From Stegostoma tigrinum (Eukaryota), in the NCBI RefSeq assembly GCF_030684315.1, contig NC_081387.1:18355309-18419308 (forward strand): a stretch of 64,000 bases of DNA, written 5' to 3'. Within the stretch, counting starts at the first letter, position 1, and each line of letters starts with the position of its first letter. The notes beneath the pieces are model-generated. The model worked only from the letters and a program-made list of their open reading frames with translations, did no database searches and had not been told where the DNA came from. The translations under genes and the position numbers were made by a program. This document shows, in pieces, positions 1,672-59,570 of this stretch.

Positions 1672-1810
1672 AATGCTACTGCTTTCACCTGAAAATTTGA
1701 GCACACACACTTCTAACAGAAATTCTCAACACCATCCTTGTAAACCTTCAAATTCCATTTCAGTGGTTAAAAGCTGTTGCAACATTTTTCTTGTCTGTTC
1801 TGTTTTGATT
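1672..1810 (+). other. Degenerate duplicate of GPCR exon 1 ('shadow exon') in intron of copy 1
   Basis: gctttcacctgaaaattt...agaaattctcaacaccatccttgtaaaccttcaaattcc aligns to exon 1 plus intron start; ATG mutated to ATT, no GT donor. Confidence 0.65.
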
Positions 1811-1880
1811 GGTTCCACAGGCCAAATCTCTGAGGAAAGGAGTGTCAATTTCAGATTGAGATGGAGAGTGATTTCGAAGC

Positions 1881-2222
1881 GTGGCACAATGGCGCAGTTG
1901 TGGGCACCTCTGCCTAACAGCACAAGAGACCTCGGTTCAATTCTAGCCTTGCATGACTGTCTCTGTGAAGTGTGCACATTTTCCCTTTGTTTGTGTATGT
2001 TTTCTCTGGGTGCTCAGGTATCCCCCCACAGTGCGAAGATGTGCAGTTTAGGAGCATTGGCTGTACTTAATTACCCATAGCATCCAGGGACAGACAGGTT
2101 AGGTGGGTTAGCCATAGGAAGTGGAGGGTTATAGGGGTGGGTCTGTTTGGGATGATCTTCAGAGGGGCAGTGTGGACGAGATCGGCTGAAATACCTGCTT
2201 CCACAACATAGGGATTCTATTC
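1881..2222 (+). mobile_element. HE1-like tRNA-derived SINE
   Basis: A-box/B-box-like tggcgcagttg / ggttcaattc, V-SINE-like core (gtgtgcacattttccc), gattctattct tail. Confidence 0.75.
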
Positions 2223-3136
2223 TCTCGGAGGGTCGCCAGTGTTTGTAAATCTTTGTCATGGAGAGGGTTGTGGGGTCGTGTCCTTGTGTATTTTTAGAGC
2301 TGATATTGAGAGATTCTTGATGGTAGCAGCAGGTATTTGAGACAACTGAAAAATACATATTTTGATAAACGTTACCCATAGAAGAGGAATAAAGGAACAT
2401 GTGAATTTGGAACCAGAATAGGCCATTTGGCCCTTTGAATCCATTCCCCCTTTTAATGGCATCATGACTGATCAGAATGAGCTCCAAAATCCTGCCTGCA
2501 TTCCACAGACCTCAACTCCCTGTGTATCCAAAATCTATCTACCTTAGCTTTACACACCCAACACCCATTACCTGAAGTAAGTGGATTCCGAAGAGTAGCC
2601 AAACTCTGAAAGAAAAATAAAACTCCTTATCTTGTTTGAAGTGGGAAACTGCTCATTGCTGAACTGTATCCTCTGATTTTAGTATCCCCCATCAAGAGGG
2701 AACCTTCTCGTGCTGTCCCACTTTATCCAGTCCCCTCAAAGTACTACCTGTTGAAATAAGATCTCCTTACATCCATTTTGACTTGAATGGAATTTGGCTT
2801 AAGCTTTCTGCACAAAATCAAAACCGGGAATGGGGGAAGGAATCTCTCTGACCTGCTTTGAAAGCAATAATATTTGTTTTCTTGAACTAGGCAAAGTAAA
2901 TGGTTCAAAGTAACTAACAATTTTCCATAATACTGCTGAAATTCCCTTCCAATTGTTTCCATGACAGAGCCAATGAGTTTCCAATAAGATGTTGCTGAGT
3001 TTTATGATTGGACAAGTCTAGAATTACTAACAGCACCCAACAATCTTATGACTCCCTCCTCCAGAATCCCAGACATCATCCACACACATCTCTACTGGGC
3101 ATTTCAAACCTCTCATGATCTGGATTTTCTTTTCAG

Positions 3137-4043
3137 CAAACCTGATAACTGTGCTGATTCTATGCCAAGGGAAGTGCGGCCTATCCAAAGGAATCACTCG
3201 CTACATGATGGCCATGGCAATGGGAGACCTCATGGTACTTATCTTCAATGTGATTGTGAGCCAGGTTGTCGGGTATCATTTCCCGAGCCCCCTGCTGAGT
3301 AACACTCCTGCTTGCCGATTCAGTGTTTTCCTGCAAGGGCTCAGCCTCCAGCTCTCCATCTGGTTTACCATATTCTTCACCTTTGACAGTTTCGTAGCAA
3401 TTTGCTGCCACAGATTGAAGGCGAGGTATTGCTCTGAAAGAACGGCCAATGTAGTCATATTCATCGTGAGCGCTCTTAACATTATAGTAAACATGCCCTT
3501 GTCTTTTCGCTATGAGCCTGCTTACATTCTGAACAATATCCAGTGGGGTTGTCGTACTATTACTGGTTACCTGACTTCACCGGCTTGGGAGTTCACCGCT
3601 GGCTCACCAATATCTCAAACATGTTTCTCCCTATTCCCCTGCTGCTGCTGTTGACTTCTCTCACTGCCCGGCACATCCTAGTGGCCAGCAGAGCTCGCCG
3701 AGTCCTGAAGCGCAGCAGGAGTGGTGTTTCTGGGAAGATGGGCAAAGACCCCGAGCTGAAGAGCAGGAGGACTTCTATCATTCTGCTCTTCTCCATCTCA
3801 GGCTGCTTTGTGTTGATGTCGGCACCCATCACTGTCATTCACATCTGTGTCGGTGTCACTCAGACAGTGGCTTTCCAAGGTGCAAGCTCAATCTATTTGG
3901 TAATCAGGGTGACGTTCCTGCTGATGTGCACCAGCTCCTGCACAAACACATGTATTTACGCAATGACCCAGAAGAGATTCAGGGAGGAGATGAAGAATGT
4001 GCTGAAATCTCCCTATTCTCTGCTCTGTACGCTCTGTAAATAA
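3137..4043 (+). pseudogene. GPR139-like: GPR139-like orphan GPCR copy 1, exon 2; 1-nt frameshift near 3589; exon 1 upstream of window
   Basis: Acceptor ttttcag at 3136; ANLITVLILCQGKCGLSKGITRYM..AMGDL, FDSFVAICC, SSCTNTCIYAMTQKRFREE; ORFs 3115-3654 and 3543-4043 overlap in different frames (TGG G-A GTT CAC vs TGG GCA GCT CAC in paralogs). Confidence 0.85.
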
Positions 4044-4055
4044 CTTCCACTTGCA

Positions 4056-4397
4056 GGGGGAGGTGGTGAACTAATGATAACCTCACTGGGCAGGTAAACC
4101 AGAGCCCAAAGCTGACACAGATAGCAGACACAGTTTCAAATTGCACCATTGCAATAAATGGATTTTTCCTTCCATAAAAAAATAGCATCATGGTGACCGT
4201 GTCACGATTCGTGGTTGTAAAGCCATAACTTTAATTTTAGGAAGAATGTCTTTTGGCATGAGTTCTGCCATCTTTACCTGCTCAGTGCTACATGTAACAT
4301 CAAACCCACAGCCATGTGGTTGCCTCTTCACTACCCTCTGGGCAATAAATGCCAACCTAGCCAGTGATTTTCACACTCCCAAATGAACAAAATAAAA
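4056..4397 (+). mobile_element. Ancient tRNA-derived SINE (MER131-like) directly after the stop codon
   Basis: ggaggtggtg head, cccacagccatgtggttg core, gggcaataaatgcc..gccag tail; contains AATAAA at 4153 and 4344. Confidence 0.6.
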
Positions 4398-5479
4398 AGG
4401 CACTAATAAGAAGCCACTGCAATTGTACAGTGTTTTTTTGGCTTTGTGAAACTCTCAGTGCAAGATGTCTTAATGGTTTGGAAGAATTTATTTGGTTTCT
4501 GAAAGAAGTTGATGAAGTTAAAGTCAGTGAATATGTACGGGATATAAATGAAGTGATAAGGATCATGTTATGCAGCAATAGTGTTCCTACCTCTGATCCT
4601 GAAGATCTGACTTACACACCTACATTTGCACAGATTCCTTATATCACAACTGACCAGGTTGGTCCAAGTATCTAGAACATAGAACTTTACAGCACAGGAT
4701 AGGTCCCTTAAGTTCATGATCTTGTACCAAACTTGACGCCAAATGAAACTAATCACTTCTGCCTGCCGTCAATCCATATCCCTCCATTCCTTGAGTATTG
4801 ACGTACTTATCTAAAAGCCCCTGAAATGCCCCGATTGTATCTGCCTCCACCACCACCCCGGTGGTGCATTCCAGACTCCTACAACTCTCTCTGTCATGTA
4901 TGTGCCCATGGCATCTCTTTTGACCTTCCCCATATATAGTCAATCTACACCAGACATTAGCAACATCACAATTGCAGAGTTCGGTGTTATTCTGGGCATC
5001 AAATTAGCAGTTTGGGGAAAATGTTGAAGGTACTGAAGAGATTCGTTGCGATAATACCAGATGCACATCCCTGTAATTATGAAGCAGAATGTGACACATT
5101 GAGTTTCTTTTCATTCTGAATCAATGAGATTGAACAGTTAGAGGCAGTTCCAGTGATGAAGGGTTGCCTCGGGTTGAATAAGAACAATCATTTATTGATC
5201 TAGATGCAGTGGATGTCAACATCAAGGTAACGTGGAAGGACTTCCTTTGGCTGACTGAAAGTGTGAGATTGACTGCCAGAGTTACTGAAAGTTGAAAGAT
5301 GCCGCCCCAGGAGCCTTGCTCAGTTGTTGCAGTGCATCTTGTAGATGGGACACATCGCAGCATATCAATGTTTGTGTTAGAAGAAATGCATTTCAAATGT
5401 TTTAGATTGTGCATCAATACATCCAAAGAATCAGCCCAAGCCTGAATATGGTCCAGATCTTGTCACACATGGACATGGA

Positions 5480-6245
5480 GTGGACAATGGAGTTTAATTC
5501 AGATAAATTCATGTTTATGAGACAGACCAAGGTGGGCTGTGCACTGAATGGTAGGGCCTGGAGAGTGTTGCTGAACAGAGAGACCTGGATATGCAAGTAT
5601 GTCGATTCAGGAAAACGGTGTCATGAGAAGACAAGTTGGTATAGAAGGCATTCGGCATGTATGACTTCATCGGTCAGAACAATGAGTACAATATTTGAGA
5701 CAGCATGTTGCAGCTGTACAGGACATCAGTATAGTCACATCTGGAGCATACCATACAGCTCATGTCACCCTGCTATTGGTATGGTATTCTTAAAATGGAA
5801 ATGGTGCTGAACAGATTTAAAAGGAGTGCTTGAGTTCGAAGAAGCAGTTGGATAGGCTGGGACATAAGAAAACTGAGGGGTGACCTTATAGAAGTTTAAG
5901 AAATAATGAGAAGCACAGATGAGGTCAACTGACAATGTCTTTTTCCCAGGGTATGAGACTCCACAGCTAGATGGCATATGCTTAAGATGACAGAGGAACG
6001 ATGGGCAACTTTCTAGCACAGCGGATTGTGCAACTGTGCAACAAGCCTAAAAGGCAGGGTTAGAGGTGAATACTCTAAAAACCATTTAAATGATTTTTGT
6101 AATGGCACATGAATGGAAAGGTTTTCGAGGAATATGAGCCAATTACACACAAATGAGAATAGTTCAGATGAGGAAACTAGTTATCATCGATGGGTTGGAG
6201 TTAATGGTCTTTTCCAGTGCTGTGTGATGCTATGATTGTATGATT
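5480..6245 (+). mobile_element. Old CR1 LINE 3' fragment
   Basis: WTMEFNSDK; agggtgaccttatagaagttt; tatgatt tail. Confidence 0.7.
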
Positions 6246-6714
6246 GCTTCATATTCTATATGATTTTTTTGCAATTAACAATGAAAATAGCAAGACTATG
6301 GACATACAAGGAATAGTGTAGATTAGATGGGCTTGAGATCGGTATGACAGTCCCCCCAAAGGGCCTGTACTGTGCTGTAATGTTCTACGTTCTATGTTCT
6401 ATGGCTTTATCTCATGCTGGTGGGATGGCCATTAATGAATCAATATAAGTTACTCACGAATGATGAAGCAATCGTTTGACCAATTGATCGAACAGAATCT
6501 TGAAGTTCGGTGAAAAATTAGAGTGATTCAGTTGATCAGTTTATGGATACCTTTCTTCCATACAAATTGCTGACTGAATCTCCAAGAGTCTTGTACATCC
6601 AGCACAAGTAGGTTGTTCTATTCCTCAGTGTGACTGAGGAATAGCTGTAAACCTATAGGAGGATATCATCGGTCAGATAGTCAGAACATGCAAATTAAAA
6701 TTAATCCCCCTTTT

Positions 6715-6932
6715 GCCCACACACCCCTGAACACTATCGGCAATTTAACATGGCCGATCCACCTAGCCTGTACATCTTTAGACTATGGGAGGAAACTGGT
6801 GCATCCGGAGGAAACCCCACAGACACGGGGAGAATGTGCAAACTCTACACAGCCTGTTGCCTGAGGATGGAAATGAACCCGGGTCCCTGGTGCTGTGAGG
6901 CTGCAGTGCGAACCACTGAGCCACCGTGCCAC
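6715..6932 (-). mobile_element. HE1-like SINE
   Basis: Reverse complement reads ggcacggtggctcagtggtt...gacccgggttcatt...gagtttgcacattctccccgtgtctg. Confidence 0.75.
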
Positions 6933-7339
6933 CATCAATGCTCATTCCTTTTCCAGATTCACTTCATTCAGAGTATTCCTTAAACGTTCTGACAACTGCA
7001 ACCGGTTTCCAGATAAAAGTCCAACAAAGAGGTTTTGTATGCCTAGCATTATTTCATTTGATGCATGTGCTTTTGTCTGTATCATTCCAAGTTCAGTATT
7101 TTCAGCTTTCTGGCTTTTTCATCCATCCTGGTGCTCATTTAAACTCATTATACGCTGAGATATTCAGTCCCTCCAATATCCTTCTGAATTCCCACATGAC
7201 CAAATCCCCATTTGTAAAAATCAGAATGAGACGTCATTGACGTGCAAAAACTGCTGTTTCTTCAATCTTTGATGCTTGCCAAAGTAATTTCCTCATGTGG
7301 GTCTATCTAGAATGAGTGGTCACCATAATAAGATAAGTA

Positions 7340-9994: not shown

Positions 9995-10407
9995 AGGGCT
10001 CATGTGGCACAATTGTAGAATCCCTCTCTCTGGGCTAGAAGGCGTGTCTTCAATTCTCACTGACTCCAGAGCCCTGTCATAGCACAGATTGATTGAAAAG
10101 GGTGAAAAGTGATATTTTGTATCTACCTCCTGGGCTACTTTACTCTCAGTCTCTGATTGAAGTTGAACTGCAGCAATTAGGTTTCTCATGGGCTTCTCAG
10201 AAGTCATTGCTCTGGGGACTGGGTGACACTGGCTCTGATTCCCTGCGGATCGAGAGTTCTTGGTGAATAATGCTCAATAACCTGTTTGTTAGAAATGTTG
10301 AGGTTATTGAAATGTGCTCACTGTTTCATGGGAGGTTTCGCTTGTGTATAAATTGAGTACATTTCAATGCATACCCTCATTTCGATTGTTGCTGGTTTCA
10401 CCTTAAA
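9995..10407 (+). promoter_or_regulatory. Conserved GPCR upstream block with TATAAAT at 10347-10353
   Basis: Colinear with 35085-35493 and 57443-57859; TATA-like element starts 61 nt before the ATG in all three. Confidence 0.65.
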
Positions 10408-10471
10408 ATGGGATTACAGGCACTTCCGATGGAAATTATTTTTCCCATTCTTGCAATCTTTGGAATTCCTG
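10408..10471 (+). pseudogene. GPR139-like: GPR139-like copy 2 exon 1 (MGLQALPMEIIFPILAIFGIP)
   Basis: ATG at 10408, G|gtaag donor, phase 1 joins exon 2 at 13920 to give GIP-ANL. Confidence 0.85.
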
Positions 10472-10659
10472 GTAAGTTGTTAAAAAAATCTGTAACTTTT
10501 TTGTTGCTCGTTCTGCATTGAATTTCACCTCTACAATTTGTAGCTACATCCCACGAATAGATCGCCTGCTTATTGCTGAGTTTGTCTGCACTTCATCACT
10601 ACCAGTTTCGGACTGAATGCAATTAGTCCTATCGCAAGTGTCTGGTTTGGAAAAATCTG

Positions 10660-12780
10660 TGTTTAAACTGAGTAAAGGGAATTACAATGATATGACGAGT
10701 TAGCTACCGTGAACTGGGTTGATAGTTTAGCAGAAACAACTGTAAGCAAGAAATGGCAGACATTTAAGGAGGTAATTCAAGGCTTTCAGCAAAAATGCAT
10801 CCCAAGTAAGAAGTAAAGATTCTCAGAGAGGGATAAACCAGCCATGGCTAATCAAGGAAGTTATTGAGGTGAATGTTAAAGCATACAAAGAGGCAGAAAT
10901 CACTGAAAGCCCTGAGGACCGGGATAAATTTCAAATTCAGCAAAGTAAGAAAAATGATAATCATGAGCAAGAAAATAAACTATGAGAGCAAGGCAGCAAG
11001 CATGATAAAAACTGACAGTAAGAGCTCCTTTAAATATGCAAAAAGGAAGACCATGATCAAAGTAAACACGTACCCTTTAGAAAATGAGTTGGGGCGATAG
11101 TCACAAGGAACAAGGAGATGGCATAGAACTTATCCAGATAGTTTGCATCACTCTGTACATCGGAACATACTTCGAACATGCAATTAATTTGAAATAATTT
11201 GATGGAGAAATTGAGTCTGATCTTAATCACTAAGGAAGGCGGATGAGAAAACTGAATGATGTTGAAGGCAAATAAGTTCCTTGACTCTGATGGCTTGCAT
11301 CCTAGTACCAAACAACAGATATCTGCCGAGATAGTGAATGCATTGGTTGCCGTTTCCTAAAATCCTTGGAATCTGGAGCAGTGCCAGATATTTAGATAGC
11401 TGTCAATGTGCCATCCCACTCAAAACAGGTGGGAGGCAATAAGTAACTCAATGCATTGGTGAAAACATATTGGAAACAATTAGTAAAGATGGGAGAGCAG
11501 AATATTTGGCAAATCCCATTCTCATCCAGCAGATTCAGCACAACATAATGAAAGTGAAATCATGTCAGAGAAATTGTTTCGAATACTTTCAGGAAGACTC
11601 TATCAGAATGGATTAAGGGGTAACAACAGGGATGTTATATTTGAACTTTGTGTTCAGCAAGGTACCTCCCAAAGGTTACGTGCTGAGATTAGAGCCCCAT
11701 GCTGCTGGAGGTAGTACATTGGTATGGAGAGAGAATTGAGTAATGGCCAAGAAACAATGAGTGAGGATAATGGCTCCTTTTTTCAGGTTGGCGATCCAGA
11801 ATCAGTGCGGCTACACGGGGGTCAGTGCTGGGATTGCAGCTGTTTACAATGCATATTAATGAAGTGGAGAAAGGAAGGAAATAGCCAGGTTGTCAAATGA
11901 CACAAAACATAGTGGAAAAGGCAGATTGTGAGGGGGATACAAGCACTTCACAGAGATTTAACGATGGTTTAAGAATGGGCCAATCAGCTGGCAACTGAAA
12001 TAAAATGTGGTAGAATTTAAGTTTTTCGTTTTGTAAGGTAGAACAAAACAACTGAGTTTTATCAAAATAGAGAAACGTTGTAAAAGCTGAAACACAAAGG
12101 CACTTTGGGTTCTTGTGCACAAAACACAAAAAGATAGCAGACAGGTCGAGACAGTAATTATGGAGGGTCATGAAATGTTGGGCCTTTTTCAAGAGTTGAT
12201 TTGATTTGATTTATTATGGTCACATATACCTGAGCACAGTGAAAAGCTTTGTTGTGCAAGCAGTGCAGGCAGATCAGAGCAAACAAGGACATACATATCA
12301 TTGCATGTTTAGACAGTGAAGCATCGAGGTTACAGCTGCACAGTGGGTGCGCAAAGCAAGATCACCATGAGCAAGAACAACATTACTTGAAGTTCGAGAA
12401 TCTATTCAGCAGTCTAATATTGGCGGGGAAGAAGCCAGTGTTGAACTTGTTGTTGTCTGTGTTCAAGTTGAACGATAAGAGGAGGGACGTCACATTTCAG
12501 TTATACAAGGTTCTGCTGAGGCCAGATCTGCAGGTCTGTGAGTAGCATTGATCGTGTTATTGAGGGCAAGATACCATTTTATAGTTAGCAGATCAGAGAA
12601 GGTTTGTTAGGGTGATCACAGGTGTGGAAGGATTGTATAATGAGTTAAGGTTAAACATTTTGGGACTCTACTCACTGGAGTTGAGAAGAACGAGAGGTGA
12701 TCTCATTTTGATATATGTGATTCTTAATGTGAGTGACAGGGTAAATGATGAGAGAATGTTTCTCCTCATGGGGGAGTGAT
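10660..12780 (+). mobile_element. Old CR1 LINE ORF2 remnants in intron 1 of copy 2
   Basis: Degenerate CR1 RT segments (FKYAKRK..; FQLYKVLLRPDL; gagaggtgatctcatt). Confidence 0.7.
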
Positions 12781-12782
12781 TT

Positions 12783-12925
12783 AGCTATTTCTGCTTTCAC
12801 CTGAAAGGGCACCACAAGCACTTGTGACAGAAATTCTTGATCCCATCCTTGTGATCCTTGAAATTCCTGCTCAGTGGATCAAAGCTGTTGTAACATTCTT
12901 CTTCACTGTTTTGTTTTCAAATGTT
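12783..12925 (+). other. Shadow exon 1 duplicate in intron of copy 2
   Basis: ctgctttcacctgaaagggcaccacaagcacttgtgacagaaattcttgatcccatccttgtgatccttgaaattcctg; CR1 sequence on both sides. Confidence 0.7.
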
Positions 12926-13919: not shown

Positions 13920-14827
13920 CGAACCTGATGACAATGTTGATTCTTTCTCAAGAGAAGTGCGGACTTTCCAGAGGAATCACTCGTTATATGACTGCCATGG
14001 CAACATGAGATCTGATGGTCATTGTCTTCAATGTGATTGTGAGCCAAATCATTAATTATCATTTCCCGAGCTCGCTGCTGAACTACACTCCTGTCTGCAG
14101 ACTCAGTGCTTTCCTGCAAGGGCTGAGCATCCAACTCTCCACCTGGTTTACCACAGCCTTCACCTTTGACCGCTTTGTAGCAATTTGCCTCAACAAATTA
14201 AAGATGAGATATTGCACTGAAAGAATGGCCAACGTGGTCATATGCACCATAACTGTGCTTATCATTTTGGTCAACATTCCCTTGTCTTTTCGCTACAAAT
14301 CCACTTACATTCTTAACAAAGTGCAGTGGGGCTGCCAGACCATTACTGGTTACCTGACTTCACCGATTTGGGCTGCTCATCGGTGGGTGACCAGTTTCTC
14401 AAGCACATTTCTTCCTATTCCCCTGTTCCTGTTGTTGAATTCTCTTACTGCCCGGCACATCCTAGTAGCCAACAGAGCTCGCCGAGCCCTGAAGAGTAGC
14501 AGCAGTGATGGCGTTGGGAAGCTGAGCAGCGACCATGAACTGAAGAGTAGGAGGACCTCCATTGTTTTGCTTTTCACCATCTCTGGGAGCTTTGTAGTGC
14601 TGTCGGTGCCCATCTCTGTCATCCACATTTGTGTCGGCTTCACCAGCCTTCTGGCTTACCAAGGTTCAACCTCATTCTCTTTGGCACTTAGGGCAACGTT
14701 CCTGCTGATGTGCACCAGCTCCTGCACAAACACTTGTATTTACACACTGACCCAAAGGAGATTCAGAGAGGAGATGAAGAATCTGGTGAAATCTCCCTAT
14801 TCTCTGCTGCGTAAGCTACACAAATAA
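13920..14827 (+). pseudogene. GPR139-like: GPR139-like copy 2 exon 2; one premature TGA at 14006-14008, otherwise full length (323 codons spliced)
   Basis: Acceptor ttttcag at 13919; ..AMAT*DLMV.. (GGA or GCA at this codon in paralogs); FDRFVAIC; NTCIY; ORF 14015-14827. Confidence 0.85.
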
Positions 14828-34380: not shown

Positions 34381-35493
34381 AATGATGCTTCCTAACCTGC
34401 TGTGTATTTATGATATTTTCTGTCATTATTTCAGAGTCTTGATGATTTTGCTTTTGTGTAAGTTCAAGTAATCCGAAAGCAGTAATATAATGTGAATATC
34501 CCATAAAACACTGTTCAATGTTTCACATTGGCTGAACTTTCTTCCTTTTTGGTCAGCTCACATATATTGTAAATCTGTTTTCCAAATTGATTGTAACCAG
34601 AGTCAAAACTACTCAATGAATGAATTTAAGCATTTCTTATTTTTCAACCTTCCCTTCTCATGAGCAAATGCAAATTCCAGGTTACAAATGAGTTTAAAGG
34701 CATTTTCAAATCTTTGAAAGAACATAGGAGTGGTAAGGGACATTTTGCTTCCTTTGCAAAGATCTCTTGGGAAAAAAGTTGTTTTCCTGGAGTTTAACAC
34801 TACAGGTGTACGCTGATGAGAACAATTTTCATTGACAACGGCAATGTAAGATAAAATGCCCTGATTTAAACACATTTGAATAAAATTTCCTGACTCCGAC
34901 AAACATTTTAATTTGTATATGTATATATCATAATCTTCATGGTGTATAGCATAGAAATCATGGTAGAAAGATCTTTCTGCTGGAAAATGAAATATGTCTC
35001 CTTAAGAATGCTTTTTCATTTGTCACGAGATGTACATACTACAGGTAGGAAGAGAAGGAAAATGTTAGGAAAAGGAAACTTGGGCTAATGTGGCACAATT
35101 GTAGGATTTTTCTGTCTGGGCTACAAAGCCTGCGTTCGATTCCCAGTTTCTTCAGATCCATGTTGCAGCAAAGGTTGATTTTAAAGGGTGAAACTTGATT
35201 CTTTAAATCTACCTCCTGGACTATATTAGGGTCAGGCCGAGAGAATCAGATCTCTCGTGTCTCTCTCAGAAGTCAGATCTCTCGAGCATGAAAGACACTG
35301 ACCCGGGTTCATTGGGGATCACAGAGTTCATTGTAAATACTGCTCAATGCCACAACATGTCAACTTGTTTTTTTTTCAAAATGCTGAGCATAATGAGCTC
35401 TGTTCATGCTCCCACGAGATGATCAGCTTGTGAATAAATTGAGATCTATTCAACATAATGCCTCATTTTGACTGCTTCTGTTTTCAGCAGAAT

Positions 35494-35557
35494 ATGGGAT
35501 CACAAGGCCTTCCAATAGAAATTCTTTACCCCATTCTTGCAATCTTTGGAATTCCTG
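35494..35557 (+). CDS. GPR139-like: GPR139-like copy 3 exon 1 (MGSQGLPIEILYPILAIFGIP); intact although its exon 2 is dead
   Basis: ATG at 35494, G|gtaag donor at 35558, conserved upstream block. Confidence 0.75.
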
Positions 35558-35739
35558 GTAAGTAACGAGGAGAGGCTGTAACAATTTTCTGGCCTGTTTT
35601 GTTTTGAATTTCTTCTCTTCAATTTGGCTCAACATCCCCTGAAAGGACGTCCTGCGTATTGCAGAGTTCACCTGTTCTTCATTCCATCGGTTTAGCTCTG
35701 AGCTCAGTGAGCACTGTCCCAACTAACTTCGTTGGAAGA

Positions 35740-37085
35740 AAATATTGTTAAACTCAGTAAAACAATAAGAAAATAGCAGAGGAATTAAACAGATATTTTG
35801 CACCAGATTTTGTGAAAGAAGATCCTTTGAACATTGCATTAATTATAAAGAATGTAGTGGAGGAATTAAGAACCTTCACCATCACTCAGGAAAGGGTATT
35901 TGGTAAACTAATGGGGTTAAATGTGAATATGCTTCCTGCTGTGAAGGCTTACAACCACGGATTGTAAAACAGGTAGCTACACAGTTTGTGGATGCAATTT
36001 CTGTAATTTACAAAAATCCTTGGATATTGGAGAAGTGTCAGAGATTTGGAAAACTGACAATGTGAAACTTGTGAAATCTATTTTAAAAGAAAGCGAGGCA
36101 AGGTAGATGTGAGAAAATCTATTGTTGAAAAAGGAACGTAATTCATTAATAGGAGGAGAATAAGCAAGTTGAGAAAATATACTCATCACACAGAGTCAAT
36201 ACAGCTTCATGAAGGGTAATCGTGTCTGACTAATTTCTGTGAATTCTTTGCAGAAGTCTCAACTAAAATGCATAGAAGGGAATCAATGGATGTGTTGTAT
36301 TTGGTTTTTGAGAAGGCTTTCAATAAGGTACCTCTCAAAACATTATGCCATAAGATCAGAGCTCATGGTGTTGGAGGTTTCTTCTTGGAACCCATGACCT
36401 GTGGGGTTCCACTGGGATCAATGGTGGTATTGCTGCTCTCTACAATATATATTCAAAGCTTGGAGGAAGGAAGTGAATGTACTGTAGCTGAATTTGCAGA
36501 TGACACCAAATACAGATGCAAAGGTACATTGTGAGAGGGATATCAGTCGTTTACAGAGAAATATTGCAAGTCAAGCAAGTGGTCAAAAAGTTGTTAAATG
36601 GTGTATAATTGTGGGAAAATATCAAGTCATTCATTTTGGAAGGTAGTACAAAAGAACAGAGATTGATTTAAACGGTGAAAAGCTGCAAAAATCTGAAACA
36701 AATGTACGTAGAACATATGTAAAACAAAAAAGAAAGCTAGCACACAGGTACAGCCAGTAATCAGTAAGGTTGTCCTCTTATTTGAAGGGAGTTGGAGTGT
36801 AAGAGTAGGGAAGCCTTACTGAAAATGCAAAAGGTGCGAATGAGATCACAGCTGGAGTGCTGTGAGCAGTTTTAGTCTGTTACTGTAGGAGAGTAAAGTT
36901 CAGAGAAGGATCATCAGAAGGATGATTACAGGCAGGGGGTGCTTGCCATGTGCACAGCAATTAAAGTTTGAGACTCAACACACTGGAGTTTAGAACAGTG
37001 AGAGGTGATGTCATTTCGACGTATAGAATTCTTACCGGGATCAACAGGATAAACGCTGAGAGGATGTTTCCCCTAATGGGAGAGT
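35740..37085 (+). mobile_element. Old CR1 remnants in intron of copy 3
   Basis: MDVLYLVFEKAFNKVP; EFADDTK. Confidence 0.75.
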
Positions 37086-37359
37086 CTTTTGATTGTTTCT
37101 GCTTTGTCCTGAAAATGGGAGCAGTGTTGGACAGCCAGCCCCCATTACACTCACAGGAAGACAATTCCATAAAATAACCACCTTCTGGGAGAATAGAGAT
37201 CTCCTTATTTCTGATTGAAAAGGGAAACTGTTCATTCTTACATTGTATCTTTTTTTTTCTCCCTCTCAAGAGGAAACTACTTTCTGGTGTTGCATTTTAT
37301 CCTGTCTCCACACGATCTGATAAGTTTCAATGAGACAACCTCACGTTCTTCTGGCACAA

Positions 37360-37918: not shown

Positions 37919-39285
37919 CCAACCTGATGACAGTGTTGATTCTTTTCCAAGCTAAGTGAGGACTTTCCAAAGTGTCGAAGGATTATTAGAGTGCCAATTG
38001 AAATAAGTTGTAGAATGTAGTTTAAGCTTAAAATTAGAGGTTGGAATGATGGCGAAATAAGTCATGTCAGAGATATGCGACAAATTGTTGCCCATCTGTA
38101 GAAAGCTTAGAACCTGTTGTTCAATGTTGAACCAAAGCCCTGGACATGTTCTGCTTAAAGATAACGTGTCAGCAACTGCAAATGTGGAGTCATGATGTAT
38201 AACATGGCATGGGGCCTTCCTTAAGGGGATGTGTTGAACTGTGTACATGCTTATCTGCTTACAACAACTGTGTCAAACTATAACATCACATATATGTATT
38301 GCCTTGTTTTTGTACTCGGGGGGACTACTGGCCCAAACTTTTGTTGGTCCGCATGATAACACGAATAAAGCCTCTTTACCTCCAAGCCTAAAGATCCAGT
38401 GGGTGATTCAATTAATATCTTCGTCACAAAGGAGTAACTTGCTGCATGAGGGCCATGGCAATGGCAGGTCTAATGGTTCTTGTCTCCAATGGAATTGGAG
38501 GCCAAAGCATCAGGCATCATTTCCCAGGCTCGCCTTTGAGCTACACTGCCACCTGCTGACTCGATGCCTTCCTGGACGGACTGAGCCTTCAAGTCTCCAT
38601 CTGCTTCGCCAGAGGCTTCACTTTTGACTGCCTTTTTTGCAATTTACTGCAACAGATTGAAGGCGTGACATTGCATTAAAAGAACAGCCATCCTTGTCAT
38701 CTCCATTGTGAGCGCTCTGAATATTTTGGTCAACTTTCCCTTACCTTTTCTTTCCGAACCCTGTTGCATTGTGAATAATGTACAGTGGGGCTCCCGCATC
38801 GTTGCTGATTATCACACTTCCAGTCTGGGCAACTCATCGGTTGTTCAACAACATCTCAAACACGTTTCTGCCTATTTCACTGCTGTTTCTATTGAATTGT
38901 CTCATTATCTGGCACATTCTAGTAGCCAACAGAACACGTCAGGCCGTGAAATGCAGCAGCAGTGGGACTGGAGAGACAGGGAGATATCCCGAATAGAAGA
39001 GTAGGAAGGCCACCATCATTCTGCTCTTTGTCATCTCCAGCTACTTCGTGGTACTGTCGATGCCCATCATTATCCTTCACATCTGTCTTGGCTTTACTCA
39101 AGTGGTTGATTACTGAAGCTCAAACTCGCTCTACGGACCATTCAGGGCAACGTCCCCGCTGTGTCGAACCAGCACCTGCACAAACACTTGCATTTACGCA
39201 CTGTTCCAGAGGAGATGCAGACAGGGGATGAAGAATGTGGTGAAATCTCGCTATTCTCTGCTCTGTAAACTAACTCAATATTTGA
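37919..39285 (+). pseudogene. GPR139-like: GPR139-like copy 3 exon 2, heavily degraded (stops, frameshifts, LTR insertion)
   Basis: Acceptor at 37918; ANLMTVLILFQAK*GLSK; homology resumes at 38427; ISNTFLPISLLFLLNCL..HILVANR. Confidence 0.85.
37973..38426 (+). mobile_element. Solo LTR (454 bp, TG..CA ends, 5-bp TSD CAAAG)
   Basis: TSD at 37968-37972 and 38427-38431; imperfect terminal inverted repeat TGTCGAAG/CTTCGTCA; AATAAA at 38364. Confidence 0.75.
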
Positions 39286-45444: not shown

Positions 45445-46775
45445 ACCGTGAATGATTTAAGTCCTCTCTCCATCCCTCAAGAAGGAATATTCAAAAAACT
45501 AATGCGGCTAAAGGCCCTGATCTAAAAAAAAGAGACAGATCCAGGGATACTGGATATATTGACTGTAATTTACTAAAATCCTTGGATTGTGAAGAACTAC
45601 CAGATGCTTGGAAAATCGACAATATGACACTGCTTTTCCAAAAGCAAGTGATGCAAAACATGGGTTAGTACCTCGATTGTCGAAAATATATTGGAATCAA
45701 TTGTTAAAGATGAGATCGTGTGTCATTTGGAAACGATTAATCTTATCAAGCAGAGTCAGCCCAGGCCCATGAAAGGAAAATTGTGACTGCCTAACTTAAA
45801 GGAAAATTTGAAGGATATCTCAACTGGAATGGACAGAGTGAAATCAGTAGACGTGTTTTAATTAGGCTTTGAGAAGGTGTTCACAGAAGGTTGAGTCATA
45901 AGAGCCCATGCTGTTGGACGTAACTTATTGGTCTGGATAGAGAATTTTCCAATGGCTTGGAGACAGTCAGTATTGATAAGGTATTCATTTACAGCATAGC
46001 CATCCATGGCCTTTGAGGTTCCACAGGGATCAGTGCTGGAATTGCTACTGGTTGTTATAAATATTATCAACCTGGAGAAAAGAAATAAATGTACTGGAGC
46101 CAAATTTGCAAATGGCACCAAACACAGGTGGAAAAGCAGATTCTGCTCCTTCGATGCTGCTTGGCCTGCTGTGTTAATCCAGCTCAACACCTTGTTATCT
46201 CTTGTGAGAAGGTACAGCGGTTTACAGAGAAATATTGAAAGGTGAAGTGAAACATTGTCAAAAGTCGTGTGGTTAAATGTCACATTGTTCATTTTGGAAG
46301 GTAGATCAAAAGAACAGTTTTACTTAAACAGAAAACAAAGGCTGCAGAAATCTGGAAAACTAAGGGAGTTAAGGTATTTTGTACGAAACAGAGAAAGCAA
46401 GCACAAAGCTGCAGCTAGCAACCAAGAAGACTTATGGAATGTTGATACGTCTTTCAAGAGGATTGGAATATCAGTTTATGGAAGTCTTATTGCAACTGTC
46501 CATGGTGATGGTACAACCACACTTGAAGTATTGTGCGCAGTTTTGGCCTGCTATTGAGGAAAAGAAAAAAAATAATAAAATCTTCGAACACAATTCAGAC
46601 AAGGAGCATCAGGATGATCGCACATTTGGAGGGACTGTCTGATGAGCAAAAAATCAACAGATTGGGACTCTACTCACTGGAGTGTAGGAGAATGAGAGGT
46701 GACCTCATTGAGACATATTGGATTCTTTTGGGGCTTGACCAGGTAATTGCTGGACGAAGATTCCCCTCATGCGTG
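45445..46775 (+). mobile_element. Old CR1 remnants in intron of copy 4
   Basis: VPQGSVL; PHLKYCAQFW; colinear with 58215-59430. Confidence 0.75.
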
Positions 46776-46778
46776 TGC

Positions 46779-46915
46779 TTTGGCTGTTTCTGCTTTCAAC
46801 AGAAAATGGGACCACCAGCAGCTCAAAGAGAAATTCTCCTTCCCATCATTGTAATCCTCGAAATTTCTGAAAGAAAAAGCTTTTGTGACATTTTCTTGCC
46901 TGTTCTGTTCTGAAA
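46779..46915 (+). other. Shadow exon 1 in intron of copy 4 (ATG 46806, MGPPAAQREILLPIIVILEIS, no GT donor)
   Basis: 64-nt open frame 46806-46869 homologous to exon 1, followed by aaag instead of gtaag. Confidence 0.75.
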
Positions 46916-47863: not shown

Positions 47864-48771
47864 CGAACCTGATGACAGTGTTGATTCTTTCTCGAGGTAA
47901 TTGTGGCCTTTCCCACGGAATCACTTGCTACATGAAGGCCATGGCAACGGCAAATCTGATGGTCCTTGTCTTCACTGTGCTTGTGAGCCAGATCATCAGG
48001 AATCATTTCCCAGGCTCACCGCTGAACTACACTCCCATCTGCCAACTCAATATTTTCCTGCAAGGGCTGAGCCTCCATCTCACCGTCTGGTTCACCATAA
48101 CCTTCACCTTTGACCGTTTTGTAGCAATTTGCTGCCACAAATTGAAGGCGAGATATTGCACTGAAAGAATGGCCAATGTGGTCATATCCACTGTGACCGT
48201 GGTTAACATTATAATCAACATTCCCTTACCTTTTCGCTATGAGGCTGCTTATGTTGTGAACAGTGTGCAGTGGGGCTGCCGCACCATCACCAGTTATCAC
48301 ACTTCACCGGGCTGGGCAGCTCACCGGTGGGTCAGCAACATCTCAAACTCGTTTGTTCCTATTCCCCTGCTCCTGTTGATGAATTCTCTCACCACCCAGC
48401 ACATCCTAATGGCCAGCAGAGCTCGGCGAGCCCTGAAGAGCAGCAGCAGTGCTGGTGCTGTGAAGATGGGCATTGACCCCGAGTTGAAGAGCAGGAAGAC
48501 CTCCATCGTTCTACTCTTTACCATTTCTGGATGCTTTGTGATACTTTCGGCGCCCATCACTGTGATTGATATGTGTGTCGGTGTCACCCCGACAATGGCT
48601 GTCCAAGATTCGAACTCACTCTACTTGGCAATCAGGGTGACATTCCTGATGATGTGCTTCAGCTCCTGCACAAACACGTGTATTTACGCACTGACCCAGA
48701 GGAGATTCAGAGAAGAGATGAAGAATCTGGCAAAATCTCCCTCTTCTCTGCTCTGTAAGCTACATAAATAA
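47864..48771 (+). CDS. GPR139-like: GPR139-like orphan GPCR copy 4, exon 2 intact (own exon 1 not found)
   Basis: Acceptor tttttcag at 47863; open 908 nt; FDRFVAICC, WGC, NTCIYALTQRRFREE. Confidence 0.85.
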
Positions 48772-51050: not shown

Positions 51051-51052
51051 TC

Positions 51053-53362: not shown

Positions 53363-53617
53363 TGTTCTATGTTTCTATGTTGTGAGGACAGGCAAATGCA
53401 TGGTGGATTGAGATGGCAGGTGGAGCAAAGTGAGGTTATCCAATTTGATAAAATGAAAAGGCAGATGGCTTATTATCTGAATGGTGATACATTTGCAGTA
53501 AGGAGTTGCAAAACATCCTGGATGTCCTTGTAAACAAATTCCTGAAAGTAAGAATGCAGGAGCAGCAGATAGTGAAGAAAGCAAATGAAATGTCATCGAC
53601 ACAGCAAGAATATTTTC

Positions 53618-54868: not shown

Positions 54869-57442
54869 TTGAATATTTGAATATTGGGACAGGGATGTCT
54901 TGCTACAATTGTCTAAATCCTTGGAGCGACCACACTGAAACTATTTGTGAAGTTTTGGACTTTTCATCTGGTGAATGATGTTTTAACGATGGAGGGATTT
55001 TGGAGAATTTTAACCCGCTGTTTGGATGGCAGGGCTGACTTATGAAGGAAGACAGATTAGATCGTTCAAGTGTATACTCGTCGAAGGCTATAGGAAAGGC
55101 AGAGTGTGGTGTATGTATATCTAAAAATTATATAAAGCTCTAAGACAATTGCACAGAGCAAGAAGAGGAGGAATGATCCAAAGACCAGGGTGTCCAGAGG
55201 CTGACGTCACAGTCTTAGGAAACAGAGTAGAGTATTCAGGTCTGAGATGATGAGAAACCTCTTCACCTAAAGAATGGTGAGCTTCTGTAATTCCCTGCAA
55301 CCGGAACAGGTTGAGGTGAAAACATCAAATGTACTCAAGTGGAAGTTAATTTTGTTCTTAGGGATACAGGGATCAAGCCGTGTGAGGAGAAAGCAAGAAT
55401 GGGATCCTGAGTTGGATGAAATTGTGATTCCCAGAATTTCAAAATGACAGCAATTTTAAACTGAAGAACTATCACTGAATGTGTTGTTTTGAATTACGTA
55501 GACGTCAGTAAGTCAAAAGAAAGGAGTTTACTTAACGACACAAATTCACTTGCAATTCATGATAAACATAATTGTTCTCCTTTAAAGAACATATCCAACA
55601 TTGACTTCTCCAACACATTTACTGAACAGTCCAATCATCATTTGGAGCACAACTTTCAGAGATAATTCTGCCACAACTCTACATTTCCTCCAATGGAATT
55701 CTACATACTTTCTTGGAGGATTTTGCCACCAATTACCTTCTTAAAGCAGCCCCCAAACAAACAATGCTCCACAAGCACAGTCTTCTTCAAAATGATGGGC
55801 TGCTGTGGAACCTCCTCAGCACTGTTCATGAGAATATTCATATTGTTGTCCCACCAGTCGCCTTTATCTGATGCTTCAGTTACAGCTGTGTACAATGTCT
55901 GTTCGTAATCAGCACCTCATTCCAGAAAAATAAAGGAAGCAGTGACTGGCTTCTTAGTACTCCTCCAATTTTGTTCTTTTTCCTCCTATTGACTACAGCT
56001 TCCAGTTCACTCCAATCAAGAGTTTGGACCACTCCAGGCCTGTCACATTTCACATCCGATGTTTTTTCTATCACTTCAGGAGCTCTTGACTTTGAAATAA
56101 AAGCTGATAAAACCTTGATTCCTTTTGTCAATAATTGAGGAAAAAAATGTTTAACACACTTACGGTTTCAATAACGATTTCATTTCCAGCTGCCCTCTTT
56201 TCTGAGGATTCCTTCAAAATCCCCAACACTACAATTGGTGTCCCACTGAAACTCCAACAATTGTATTTCAATCATCATTTGAATGGATGCATGTCATTTT
56301 CGTGATGTCATTTTTGGTTTAGAATTTTCAGTTTTATGAGCTTTGCATCCTTCAGCTTTCTCCCAAACTCTCGTCCCATCCCCAGATATTCTGTCCCTCC
56401 TATCTACTTCTGAATTCCAACATAACCATCAGGCAACATGAAATGACGTATGTGAGACATCATCGGCATTTGCTAAAACTACTGCATCGTGTATATTTGA
56501 CACATGGCTTGATACTTGACAAAGTAGACATAGAAACAATGTTTTCTCATGTGTGGAAATCCAGAACAAGACTCATCATTTTAGAATAACAGGTCACTGA
56601 TTTAATACAGAGATGAAGAGACATTTCTTCCCACAAGGGTATCTATGTAATGAGTGGTGAATGCTGATGTAGGAAATTTTCAAAAGAGTTTAACAGATTT
56701 TATATTCGTGAGGGATTAAAGTGTTATGGTTTTCCTGGTACCTAAGACAAAAAGTAAAATTCTGTGTTACATTGCCATGTATTAGTTTTACCAGAACTTT
56801 ATTCTAATGTTCAGTAAGGTGTTGGCTCCTTCCAGAAATTTCTTGAACAATGGAAAGCCACTAAAATGAAACAGGAGAGTTAGAGGGATGTTGACAGCTT
56901 GGAAGTTGTGCGGACAACCACACTTGTCATGAGAATGAGAGGTTCTCACTGCTTATTGATGTCAGCGCATTGATTTGAGACATTTTACCACATGATTGTG
57001 AGACAGGAATTGAAAATACAAGCATAAAAAAAAGAGTTGGCCTCTTTGCACTTTCAGTCTGTCCTGCTGCTCAGTGAGATAATCGTTGATCATGATTTTG
57101 ACATCACCTTGATATTCCTGAATGGCCTCGATAATCTTTAATCCACTTTATCATCAAGAAACTTGCGAACCTGCAGTTTAAAAGAGCTTAAGATTCTGCA
57201 TCCACTGCTTTTTGAGGAAGGGAATCTCAAAGACTGTCAACCCTCCGAGAGAAATCTTTTATTGTCCTCTCTGTCTTAAAAGGGCAAAACCTTATATTTA
57301 AGCAATGGACCAAGTGCTGGTGCGACGGTGAGGGTGGGCGATGGCCAGTCAGTAATTTTGCTTAGAATCCTTTCTCATTTCTCACTGGATACATAATGAA
57401 AGGGAGGAAGAGGAGGGGCAGATTGGAATGGTGCAATTGTGG

Positions 57443-57859
57443 GCTCATGTGGCATTCTTGTATGATTTCTCTTCAAGGGCAAGAAGGACTGGGTTATAGT
57501 ATCACTTTATCCAGGGACAAATGTAACACAGTTTGATTGAAATGGGTGAAACTCGAAGCTGTATCCCTCACTCCTGGATGAGCTTACACTCCACAATCAA
57601 TTAAGGTCACACCAAGGCAGGCAGCTCCCTCATGGCCCTCTGAGAAGCCAACGCTGAGAGATGATGACCCGAATTCTCTGGTGATCACAGTGCTCAGTGT
57701 AAATACTGCTCAAGGATGTGAGATATTAACTTGTTTGTTAAAAATGCTGAGATTAATGAAATCTTAATGAATGAAATTCAGTGGAGGATTGTCTTGTGTA
57801 TATATTGAGCGTGTTTCAATGCATTGCCTCATTATGACTGTTCTGGCTTGCACCTGAAA
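57443..57859 (+). promoter_or_regulatory. Conserved GPCR upstream block with TATATAT at 57799
   Basis: Homologous to 9995-10407; TATA-like element starts 61 nt before the ATG. Confidence 0.65.
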
Positions 57860-57923
57860 ATGGCACCTGGGGCACTTCCAATAGAAATTCTCTTTCCCAT
57901 TCTTGCAATCTTTGGAATTCCTG
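57860..57923 (+). CDS. GPR139-like: GPR139-like copy 5 exon 1 (MAPGALPIEILFPILAIFGIP)
   Basis: aaaATGG start context, G|gtaag donor, phase 1. Confidence 0.9.
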
Positions 57924-58099
57924 GTAAGTTGGTAACAGCCGCTTTGACATTTTTCTTGCCTGTTCGGTTTTGAATTGAGTCTCTGCAATTTGGACCTACT
58001 CCAACCAAATGAATCTCCTCCTTGTTATTGAGTTTGTCTGCTCTTCATTACTGCTAGTTTCAGTTTGAGAGCAATTCCTCCTGCCTGGGTTAGAAACGA

Positions 58100-59430
58100 C
58101 TGTGCTTCACCTTAATGAAGAATACATGAAAATGACAGAGGACTGAAACAGATATTTTACATCATTCCTTACGATGGATGACACTTTGAGCATGTTACCA
58201 TTGCTACAGAGTATGGTGGATTATTTAAGTCCTATCTCCATTGCTGAAGAAGGAATATTTGAAAAATTATTGGAGCTAAAGAAAAATATGTTCCTGGGTC
58301 TGATCCAAAAAGAGATACAGAATGCTTTGGCTGTAATTTACTCAAATACATGGGTTGTGGAGAATTACCAGAGGTTTGGAAAACTGAAAATGTGACACTG
58401 CCATTCCAAAAGAAACGAAGGCAAAACATGGGTTATTATATCGATTGTTGAAAATACATTGGAATCAATTCGTAAAGATGAGATCGCGTACCGTTTGGAA
58501 AATTTTAATCACATCAGGCAGAGTCAGCTGAGCTCCATGAAAGGAAAATTGTGAGTGGCAAATTTATTGCAAAACGTAGCCTCATCGAGATGGAAAGAGG
58601 GAAATCAGTAGATGTGTTTTAATTGGGATTTGCGAATGAGTTCAACAGTGTCCCTCACAGAAGGTGGAGTCATAACAGTCAATGTTCTTGGAGGTAGATT
58701 ATTGGTTAGGATGGAGAATGGTCCAAGAGACAGCGAGAGTTGATGCTGTATTCATTTGTAGTTTTGTCATCCATGATCTGTGGGATACCACAGGGATCAG
58801 TGTTGAGATTGCTACTGTTTACAGTATATATTCACAACTTGGAGGAAGAAATGAATGTACTGCAGCTAAATTTGCAGATGACATCTAAGCATAGTTGGAA
58901 AAGTAGATTGTGGGAAGGTACAATGTTTTGCAGAAAGATATTGATAGGGTAAACAAATCATTGTCAAATGGAGAGTAATGTGGAAACATGTCATGTTGTT
59001 CATTTTGGAGGGTAGAACAAAAGGACAGAGTTTTATATGAACAGAAAAAATCTACAGAAAGCTGGAAGACAAATTGAGTTGAGGTACTTGCACATGAAAC
59101 ATCGAAAGCTAGCACAAAGGTGCAACCAGTCGCTTGGCAGGGTCACGGAATATTGGTCCATATTTCAAACCATATGTTACACCGCTGGGGTACTGTGTGC
59201 AGTTTTCGTCCTGTTATTGAGGAAAAGAAAAAAACTACATCAGAAGCTATTCAGACAAGGAGCATCAGCATGATCAAGTGTGGAGGAACTGTGTTATGAG
59301 CAAAAATTAAAAGATTGGGTCTCTTCTCACAGGAATGTAGAAGATTGAGAGTTGACCTTATTGAAACATATTGGATTCTTAAGGAGCTTGACCAGTAAAT
59401 GGTGGAGGATCATTCCCTTCATGGGAGTTC
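58100..59430 (+). mobile_element. Old CR1 remnants in intron of copy 5
   Basis: GIPQGSVL; KFADDI. Confidence 0.75.
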
Positions 59431-59570
59431 TTTGGCTGTTTCTGCGTTCCCCTGAAAATGGGACCACAACCTGTTCTAATAGAAATTCTAACAGAAATTC
59501 TCCTTCCCACCATTGTAATCCTTGAAATTCCTGATTAAACCTGTTGTGATATTTTTCTTGCATGTTCAGT
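59431..59570 (+). other. Shadow exon 1 in intron of copy 5 (ATG 59458, in-frame 12-nt duplication, no donor)
   Basis: MGPQPVLIEILTEILLPTIVILEIP followed by G|att. Confidence 0.75.

Follow-up and report, generated by a model that had tools for sequence, protein, structure and literature searches.

Within the 64-kb window, the whole stretch of Stegostoma tigrinum NC_081387.1 that was analysed, shark 'GPR139-like' 7TM genes form a tandem cluster, five units of which carry, inside a CR1 remnant, a degenerate copy of the gene's own segment from +3 to ~+143; the CR1 lies in sense in intron 1. These copies, referred to here as shadows, comprise 5'UTR, coding exon 1 and ~50 nt of intron; they are the product of one old event, and any function is putative. 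Tentatively, we propose that the CR1 reverse transcriptase made a double template jump onto the gene's nascent unspliced RNA during CR1 insertion, and that the shadow is now a non-coding relic. Coordinates of the cluster features are collected in Table 1.

Table 1. Positions in the window of the host exons, the real exon-1 segments, the shadows and the CR1 remnants that precede them
Feature	Position	Strand	Remarks
Exon 2, unit 1	3137..4043	+	one frameshift
Exon 2, unit 2	13920..14827	+	one in-frame stop, codon 51 of spliced frame
Exon 2, unit 3	37919..39280	+	insertion, frameshifts, five stops
Exon 2, unit 4	47864..48771	+	open, 7tm_1; window without unit-4 exon 1 or promoter
Exon 2, unit 5	60497..61440	+	open, 7tm_1
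Source segment, unit 2	10347..10521	+	TATA-like 10347, predicted +1 10379, ATG 10408, exon end 10471, GT donor
Source segment, unit 3	35433..35607	+	TATA-like 35433, predicted +1 35465, ATG 35494, exon end 35557
Source segment, unit 5	57799..57973	+	TATA-like 57799, predicted +1 57831, ATG 57860, exon end 57923
Shadow 1	1668..1808	+	profile match 1672-1808, E 7.2e-20; ATG lost; donor GT reads TT
Shadow 2	12780..12919	+	profile match 12786-12917, E 1.4e-21; ATG lost (1-nt deletion + substitution); donor GT reads CT
Shadow 3	37088..37123	+	profile match 37087-37124, E 1.3e-3; ATG kept; truncated
Shadow 4	46779..46913	+	E 5.3e-22; ATG 46806; 35-codon frame; donor deleted
Shadow 5	59431..59575	+	profile match 59431-59570, E 4.4e-17; ATG 59458; 26-codon frame; donor deleted
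CR1 ORF2 remnant 5' of shadow 1	364..1665	+	approximate edges; continues further 5'
CR1 remnant 5' of shadow 2	11105..12777	+	unit-specific insertion near 12200-12475; CR1 resumes ~12926-13090
CR1 remnant 5' of shadow 3	35764..37085	+	
CR1 remnant 5' of shadow 4	45448..46776	+	unit-4 homology begins 45448; CR1 resumes ~46920-47080
CR1 remnant 5' of shadow 5	58130..59428	+	CR1 resumes ~59582-59740

Only unit 5 (335 codons) is present in the window as a complete gene, and units 4 and 5 are sisters. Real exon 1 lies within the window for three units only (2, 3 and 5); that of unit 1 would fall before base 1. A TCA(+1)TT initiator with a TATA-like box at -32 predicts the start site in 3/3 real genes, and a promoter profile matched these three promoters alone across the 64-kb window. 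The cluster proteins belong to 7tm_1 and, among the top 12 matches, are 72–94% identical to carpet-shark 'probable G-protein coupled receptor 139', an automatic annotation name that does not imply orthology to mammalian GPR139. The elasmobranch expansion bearing this name has the same 21-codon exon 1, ending in GIP, as the cluster genes. Nothing relevant to the gene family was found in the literature listings searched.

Searching the 64-kb window by nhmmer with a profile of +1..+143 from the three real genes gave exactly five further matches, the next standing at E 0.18. The original observation of ~140-nt degenerate exon-1 copies at five sites is thereby borne out (E 1e-17 to 1e-22, and 1e-3 for the truncated copy), as is their similarity against shuffled controls: in local alignments, 0/500 dinucleotide shuffles reached the observed score in 14/15 shadow-vs-exon pairs, and 5/500 did so in the remaining pair, truncated shadow 3 against the unit-5 exon. 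The claim that every intron hides such a copy stands for 5/5 units whose site falls in the window, but only three of the units have a real exon 1 here; a sixth fragment (63466-64000) ends short of the shadow site. Also as first noted, the GT donor is missing from all four full-length copies, and copies 4 and 5 retain an ATG with an open frame; the ATG is kept in 3/5 copies (3, 4 and 5). Shadow 5 contains a 12-nt internal tandem duplication, and the deletion that removed about three quarters of shadow 3 also took the CR1 3' end. An assembly artefact is ruled out because the copies differ by 18–28% and because sequencing contigs carry the shadow-type 3' junction (4/4 runs of one sample). Another shadow, nearer to the real exon around the donor, seems to be represented by one sequenced contig.

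All five shadows come after the same point in CR1 ORF2, in agreement with the initial reading of the sequence, and CR1 ORF2, shadow and gene share the + strand and hence transcriptional orientation. The segment does not belong to the CR1 family in general: it is present in 0/8 other in-window CR1 copies, and the 8/8 that align across the site have just 16–21 nt there. Summed contig depth, which is not copy number, was 2765–8642 on the CR1 bin before the shadow vs 174–622 on the two shadow bins (4/4 runs, one sample). The insert replaced ~6 nt of CR1, the first six of the 20 expected CR1 letters failing to match CR1 copies (0.13 vs 0.45 for letters 7–20), and two unmatched letters stand at the 5' junction. 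No target-site duplication was found at the insert, the longest word shared across the junctions being 4–5 nt and different in each of four units, nor was a poly(A) or A-tract. Over -46..-1 the sequence matches the real gene with an identity of 0.30; the value is 0.10 at +1..+2 and rises to 0.72 over +3..+29. The best changepoint for the 5' edge is +3, on a shallow likelihood with +2 to +9 within about 1.3 log units, and this position in the predicted initiator of all three real genes upholds the earlier placement of the edge near the TATA-predicted TSS. The 3' edge lies at ~+143..+149, giving a length of ~143–149 nt.

The shadows form one clade with support 99/99, and they therefore represent a single event copied by duplication, as expected from the original proposal that the insertion is older than the cluster expansion. 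Pairing of a shadow with its own exon 1 is rejected (p-AU 0.0002 and 0.003); the tree thus dismisses both five independent insertions and copying from each unit's own exon. Since their common node the copies have accumulated ~0.24 changes per site. By the time the units diverged, the host CR1 had gathered only two shared stops and up to four shared frameshifts over 285 codons; the internal branch between shadows and exons, 0.116, is compatible, with wide error, with CR1 arriving together with the shadow. Judged from sequence divergence, these shared lesions and this branch fit simultaneous arrival, on a dating too coarse to tell against an older CR1. Whatever its origin, the insert provides a clean marker for dating and ordering the carpet-shark GPR139-like expansion.

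Turning to the origin of the insert, we favour an RNA-templated double jump over DNA-templated repair. RNA-templated capture of the gene's nascent 5' end had been suggested at the outset; it is plausible, given the edge at predicted +3, the sense orientation and the lack of flanking homology, though unproven. The insert keeps intron sequence, and any RNA template was therefore unspliced. In the proposed mechanism, the CR1 enzyme would copy CR1 RNA from its 3' end and then leave it, for example at an RNA break; it would copy a short promoter-proximal transcript through to the 5' end and return to the CR1 RNA ~6 nt further on. The two unmatched letters at the 5' junction could be untemplated additions, and the donor GT may have been lost by decay or selected away as disturbing splicing. 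LINE template jumping with untemplated additions is shown for L1 ORF2p (PMC10830420), and double template jumps are proposed in PMC2104539. The start site used here is a prediction, germline transcription of the gene is required and presumed, and the retained intron and local source would be equally natural with a DNA template. No extra cap-derived G is demonstrable; copies 1, 2 and 4 do have a G at +1, but it stands in place of the A and not ahead of it. If the RNA origin is true, the insert would represent a germline case in which a LINE reverse transcriptase took the nascent transcript of its host gene as a template in cis before going back to its own RNA, and it suggests a screen for host inserts in LINE bodies with edges on start sites.

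A DNA-templated local insertion is a serious, if less probable, alternative. Here a break in CR1, or the CR1 enzyme during insertion, would have copied 143–149 nt of nearby genomic DNA and been rejoined, whether by end-joining with templated insertion or by template switching during replication; that the edge lies near +1 would then be due to chance, or to the start-site DNA having been open or R-looped. Such a template needs no germline transcript, and its source is just 1.6–2.4 kb away today (donor segments 2399, 1621 and 1598 nt upstream in units 2, 3 and 5). The small deletion, absent duplication and unmatched junction letters are features of class 2 TSIP (PMC5110952), and pieces of local genomic DNA are known at L1 insertions in three cases (PMC11702581). 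However, if a 143-nt patch were placed at random so as to overlap the coding exon, the probability of its starting at +1..+3 or within +-3 would be 0.02–0.09, so that the edge meets predicted +1 at 2–9% chance, and sense orientation adds a one-in-two coincidence. Neither junction has microhomology or homeology: between CR1 and promoter, 12–96% of control positions score as high as the 5' junction ungapped, and with gaps 11–61% of controls match the 5' junction and 67–98% the 3' junction. A by-eye resemblance of the CR1 end to the promoter, which would favour DNA invasion, is not above control.

Distinctly unlikely, in our assessment, is a later RNA patch, in which CR1 came first and a reverse-transcribed piece of the gene's nascent transcript was subsequently used to mend a break within it. 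The edge and orientation evidence applies to this reading as it does to the template jump, the shared-break count permits an older CR1, and TSIs of 73–414 bp derive from RNA and show sensitivity to RT inhibitors (PMC5110952); yet those TSIs come from distant loci and not from the host gene, and a reverse transcriptase would have had to be recruited to this intron a second time. A processed pseudogene or class 1 TSIP is ruled out by the ~50 nt of intron kept, with no tail and no duplication.

Several known systems resemble the shadow in part. Tripartite LINE chimeras attributed to double template jumps (PMC2104539; discussed in PMC4476161) likewise consist of three directly joined pieces in one orientation, at least one of them LINE, for which one RT event is proposed. 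They unite three different RNAs whose 5' parts are full-length abundant RNAs, whereas the shadow has the order CR1-host-same CR1 with an unspliced host 5' end in the middle; they are also expected to have a single outer target duplication, and outer duplications are unreadable here at ~25% decay. The mRNA first-exon/LINE-1 chimeras of Law and Burns (10.1101/2025.02.02.635956) similarly join a transcript 5' start in sense to a LINE (15/17 of their cases are sense). Those chimeras lie at the LINE 5' end, are spliced, often end at the donor and are inserted elsewhere, whereas the shadow has an internal position, extends ~50 nt beyond the donor and sits in the very gene it was copied from. With the shadow, class 2 templated-sequence insertions (PMC5110952) share their size (73–414 bp in the experiments of that paper), microdeletion and unmatched junction letters, without target duplication or poly(A), but their donors are distant and they are polymorphic, while the shadow donor is 1.6–2.4 kb upstream in the same gene and the insert is fixed and ancient. 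In the local pieces at L1 insertions (PMC11702581), nearby host sequence is likewise copied into a LINE insertion, which that paper attributes to reciprocal DNA end processing before ligation; unlike them, the shadow lies inside the LINE body, ~150–170 nt from its 3' end and with LINE on both sides. A CR1-host-same CR1 geometry involving the host gene's own nascent transcript was not found in the main texts of the literature searched, and the supplements of PMC11702581 (Fig. S10) and of Law and Burns (Supplementary Table 4) may hold similar cases.

On sequence grounds, the shadow today is probably a non-coding relic. The original proposal that it serves as an alternative or decoy first exon, or as a gene-conversion donor for exon 1, appears highly improbable. 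The ATG in 3/5 copies and the open frames in two of them are in its favour, as are the contig with what resembles another shadow, nearer to the real exon around the donor, and the state of unit 4, whose exon 2 is open (private dN/dS 0.49, p 0.05) yet whose exon 1 is absent from the window. Little weight attaches to the kept ATG and frame of copies 4 and 5, since the two units are sisters and the chance is 20–30% per lineage. None of the four long copies has an in-phase GT with at least 5/9 matches to the real donor, the one in-phase GT noticed, in copy 4, having 4/9, and there is no TATA or initiator ahead of the shadows. Differences by codon position (0.30/0.23/0.19 in shadows vs 0.10/0.16/0.22 in real exons) give no coding pattern, the invariant Gly of real exons is Glu or Gln in shadows, and among the best 120 of 904 homologues 0/120 N-termini are shadow-like and 41/120 real-like. 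For want of a usable donor, a coding substitution pattern and shadow-like homologues, the first-exon role is not supported. Nor is there a convincing conversion run between shadow and exon: 1/12 pairs reached p<0.05 uncorrected, which is not significant after 12 tests, and private shared columns number 0–3, no higher in same-unit pairs.

The shadow evolves slowly, which the template-jump reading leaves unexplained and which stands against relic status. The comparison with its flanks called for at the outset, from which unit 3 was left out as truncated, gave a divergence of 0.64x the intron rate (ML, LRT p 2.6e-4) and 0.489 vs 0.690 steps per column (p 0.0008), with windows as slow as the shadow in 0/14 non-overlapping and 0/170 sliding cases. 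The slowdown persists when CpG-prone columns are dropped (p 0.004) and in columns distant from gaps (p <1e-4 to 0.02), so that CpG decay and gap-side misalignment are not sufficient causes; exon-to-shadow conversion is not supported as one. Independently of origin, the shadow could be weakly constrained because it acts in cis, as DNA or within the pre-mRNA, as an intronic duplicate of promoter-proximal +1..+143, although we consider this unlikely. The rate and its robustness argue for it, as do a 27-nt UTR part less diverged among shadows (0.20) than among real UTRs (0.35) and a blind scan whose slowest segment, 59442-59570, falls inside shadow 5. However, the blind-scan p is just 0.13, the youngest pair (units 4 and 5) has no clear slowdown (0.189 vs 0.213, p 0.57), indel density equals that of the intron (5/153 vs 80/2424), copy 3 has lost most of the element, and there is no conserved fold (-1.08 kcal/mol) or Rfam match. 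If the slow rate does reflect selection, a regulatory element would have been born from an exon copy. A fuller version, which we regard as quite improbable, would have a LINE inserting in an active gene catch that gene's nascent unspliced 5' end mid-cDNA (CR1-host-CR1), fossilising its start and premature-termination point, with the copy then kept by selection as an intronic promoter-proximal duplicate. The 130 nt of CR1 directly downstream are also somewhat slow (0.52–0.56), which tells against constraint on the shadow and is consistent with a rate that varies by region or with an old patch of conversion between paralogues. Models with free and with proportional branch lengths do not differ (p 0.51), a result with which a one-off conversion among shadows would be compatible.

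Two-exon receptor genes of the rhodopsin family (7tm_1) form a tandem cluster in the window; among their best 12 matches, the nearest named proteins come from carpet sharks and are annotated 'probable G-protein coupled receptor 139' (72–94% identity). Self-comparison resolved five units and the beginning of a sixth. Unit 5 is the sole complete gene in the window; unit 1 contains a frameshift, unit 2 a stop and unit 3 multiple breaks. Unit 4 has an open exon 2 but, within the window, lacks both promoter and exon 1. The exon-2 tree and the CR1 tree both join units 4 and 5 as sisters.

Intron 1 of these units harbors a shadow, a degenerate copy of the gene's own 5' end embedded in a CR1 LINE. A profile of the real region (+1 to +143, n=3) recovered the five shadows with E values of 5.3e-22, 1.4e-21, 7.2e-20, 4.4e-17 and 1.3e-3, the next match in the window being at 0.18, and shuffled controls scored as high as observed in 0 of 500 trials for 14 of 15 shadow–exon pairs (5 of 500 for the remaining pair). 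The similarity to exon 1 asserted in the original prediction is therefore significant, and, as it also stated, all five shadows sit after one and the same position in a sense-oriented CR1 ORF2 remnant. This site spans about 165 nt in the units versus 16–21 nt in eight further CR1 copies from the window. Summed contig depth (four DNA runs, one sample) is 2765–8642 on the CR1 bin that precedes the shadow and drops to 174–622 on the shadow bins; because this depth does not equal copy number and low values also occur on other diverged CR1 bins, the drop is supporting evidence only. The four long shadows form one clade against the three real exons (support 99/99), and pairing shadow 2 or shadow 5 with its own unit's exon was rejected (p-AU 0.0002 and 0.003, respectively). 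The five copies thus represent one insertion, which predates cluster expansion as originally proposed, and their common features are not independent. The shadow is a real, single, ancient templated insertion.

Features of the shadow-bearing units and associated CR1 fragments
Feature	Coordinates	Strand	Detail
Shadows 1–5	1668–1808, 12780–12919, 37088–37123, 46779–46913, 59431–59575	+	third truncated
Real exon 1, unit 2	ATG 10408		64 coding nt
Real exon 1, unit 3	ATG 35494		64 coding nt
Real exon 1, unit 5	ATG 57860		64 coding nt
Identical exon-1 end + GTAAG	10444–10476, 35530–35562, 57896–57928 (approx.)		three real genes
Antisense CR1 3' fragments	~2580–2780, 13330–13570, 37150–37360, 47310–47560, 59970–60228	-
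Young CR1 3' fragments	8072–9098, 17245–18389	-

Turning to the junctions, a TATA-like box lies 32 nt upstream of TCA(+1)TT in all three real genes, two of which satisfy the strict initiator pattern. Shadow–gene identity is 0.30 upstream, 0.10 at +1 to +2 and 0.72 at +3 to +29; the 5' changepoint is best placed at +3, with +2 to +9 within about 1.3 log units, in keeping with an edge near the TATA-predicted start site. For a random patch of equal length that overlaps the coding exon, the chance of starting so close is 0.02–0.09. On the 3' side, similarity to the gene stops at about +143 to +149, and about six CR1 letters are replaced. The insert shows neither a duplication nor an A-tract, and homology at either junction is not above control.

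The arrangement CR1(5')–host start–CR1(3'), with every part in sense, together with the edge at predicted +3, leads us to favor, tentatively, the originally proposed RNA template, copied during CR1 insertion. L1 ORF2p adds untemplated bases and then jumps to a new template past its template's 5' end (PMC10830420), and double jumps are proposed as the origin of tripartite chimeras (PMC2104539), for which PMC4476161 gives two separate insertions as the alternative. Were L1-like jumping extrapolated to CR1, its reverse transcriptase would have inserted a few hundred bases downstream of the gene's promoter, copied a short unspliced transcript up to its 5' end and then returned to its own CR1 RNA. 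A DNA-templated insertion is nearly as likely: the junctions fit class 2 TSIP features (PMC5110952), and pieces of local DNA are known at L1 insertions (PMC11702581). A later RNA patch is improbable. Before the units split, the host CR1 had two common stops and up to four common frameshifts in 285 codons, and now has 2–10 stops in total per unit; these counts are compatible with the shadow–exon branch of 0.116 and are no proof of co-arrival. Known first-exon/L1 chimeras (10.1101/2025.02.02.635956) are 5'-terminal and spliced, whereas the shadow is CR1-internal and retains intron sequence. Searches of an open-access library, mostly at the level of listings, turned up no account of the element or of its exact CR1–host start–CR1 geometry.

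The substitution rate, a check raised by the original prediction, proved slower in the shadow than around it: 0.489 changes per column versus 0.690 in the other 1952 intron columns (units 1, 2, 4 and 5; p 0.0008, or 0.004 without CpG-prone columns), with an ML rate of 0.64x (p 2.6e-4). None of 14 non-overlapping windows was as slow, and the result persists under gap filters; a blind scan placed the slowest segment at 59442–59570 (scan-wide p 0.13). This slowness counts against a plain relic. Selective constraint could produce it but is unlikely, given that the youngest pair (units 4 and 5) shows no slowdown, shadow indel density is at intron level, three quarters of the shadow is gone in unit 3, neither a fold nor an RNA family was found for it, and the CR1 immediately downstream is also mildly slow. 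Regional mutation rate, old paralogue conversion or chance are jointly the probable causes.

Roles as an alternative or decoy first exon, or as a conversion donor, find no support. Differences at codon positions 1/2/3 are 0.10/0.16/0.22 in real exons versus 0.30/0.23/0.19 in shadows, and pN is at least as high as pS in 4 of 6 pairs of shadows versus 0 of 3 pairs of exons. The retained ATG and 21 open codons, once read as a functional hint, are expected by chance in 20–30% of simulated neutral lineages. None of the four long shadows contains an in-phase GT with at least 5/9 matches to the real donor; the best 120 of 904 homologues include no shadow-like N-terminus and 41 of the real type; and P0001, the homologue model most like unit 4, uses other upstream sequence. 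A shadow–exon identity run occurs in just one of 12 pairs (p 0.037, uncorrected).

P0001 matches 40448–40600, 42158–42202 and exon 2 at 92–100%, so a second copy or orthologue has the same truncated unit-4 layout. Despite its missing promoter and exon 1, unit 4 (45448–48771) keeps 301 open exon-2 codons with a private dN/dS of 0.49. The sixth duplicate (62625–64000) is unit-3-like (84–86% to 33484–33963 and 35658–36201) and lacks the roughly 1.7 kb that would carry exon 1 and its promoter, marking an independent second loss of exon 1. The three real genes share an identical stretch, third positions included, made up of the final 28 coding nt of exon 1 and the GTAAG that follows, amid segments otherwise differing by about 25–35% (identity runs p 0.000–0.024); this may reflect conversion among the real exons or nucleotide-level constraint on a splicing element. 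Contig joints 59509/59489 to 57911 and 57974 to 59618/59603 hint at extra copies of the shadow, one of which matches the real exon more closely near the donor; an exon 1–shadow recombinant is a further possibility.

Older antisense CR1 fragments, inherited with the cluster, lie downstream of the shadow in every unit's intron. Units 1 and 2 retain about 400 nt of extra CR1 5' sequence (~10680–11105) relative to units 3, 5 and 6, whose common deletion may help to order the duplications. The two young CR1 fragments (99.6% identical, open RVT_1 reverse transcriptase frame) represent a recently active subfamily separate from the shadow's host. Inverted arrangements at 27173–28699, 41202–42096 and 53616–54902 are presumably Penelope-like elements; the second is an inverted repeat (~90%) with a weak GIY-YIG match at 41546–42034 (E 0.001).
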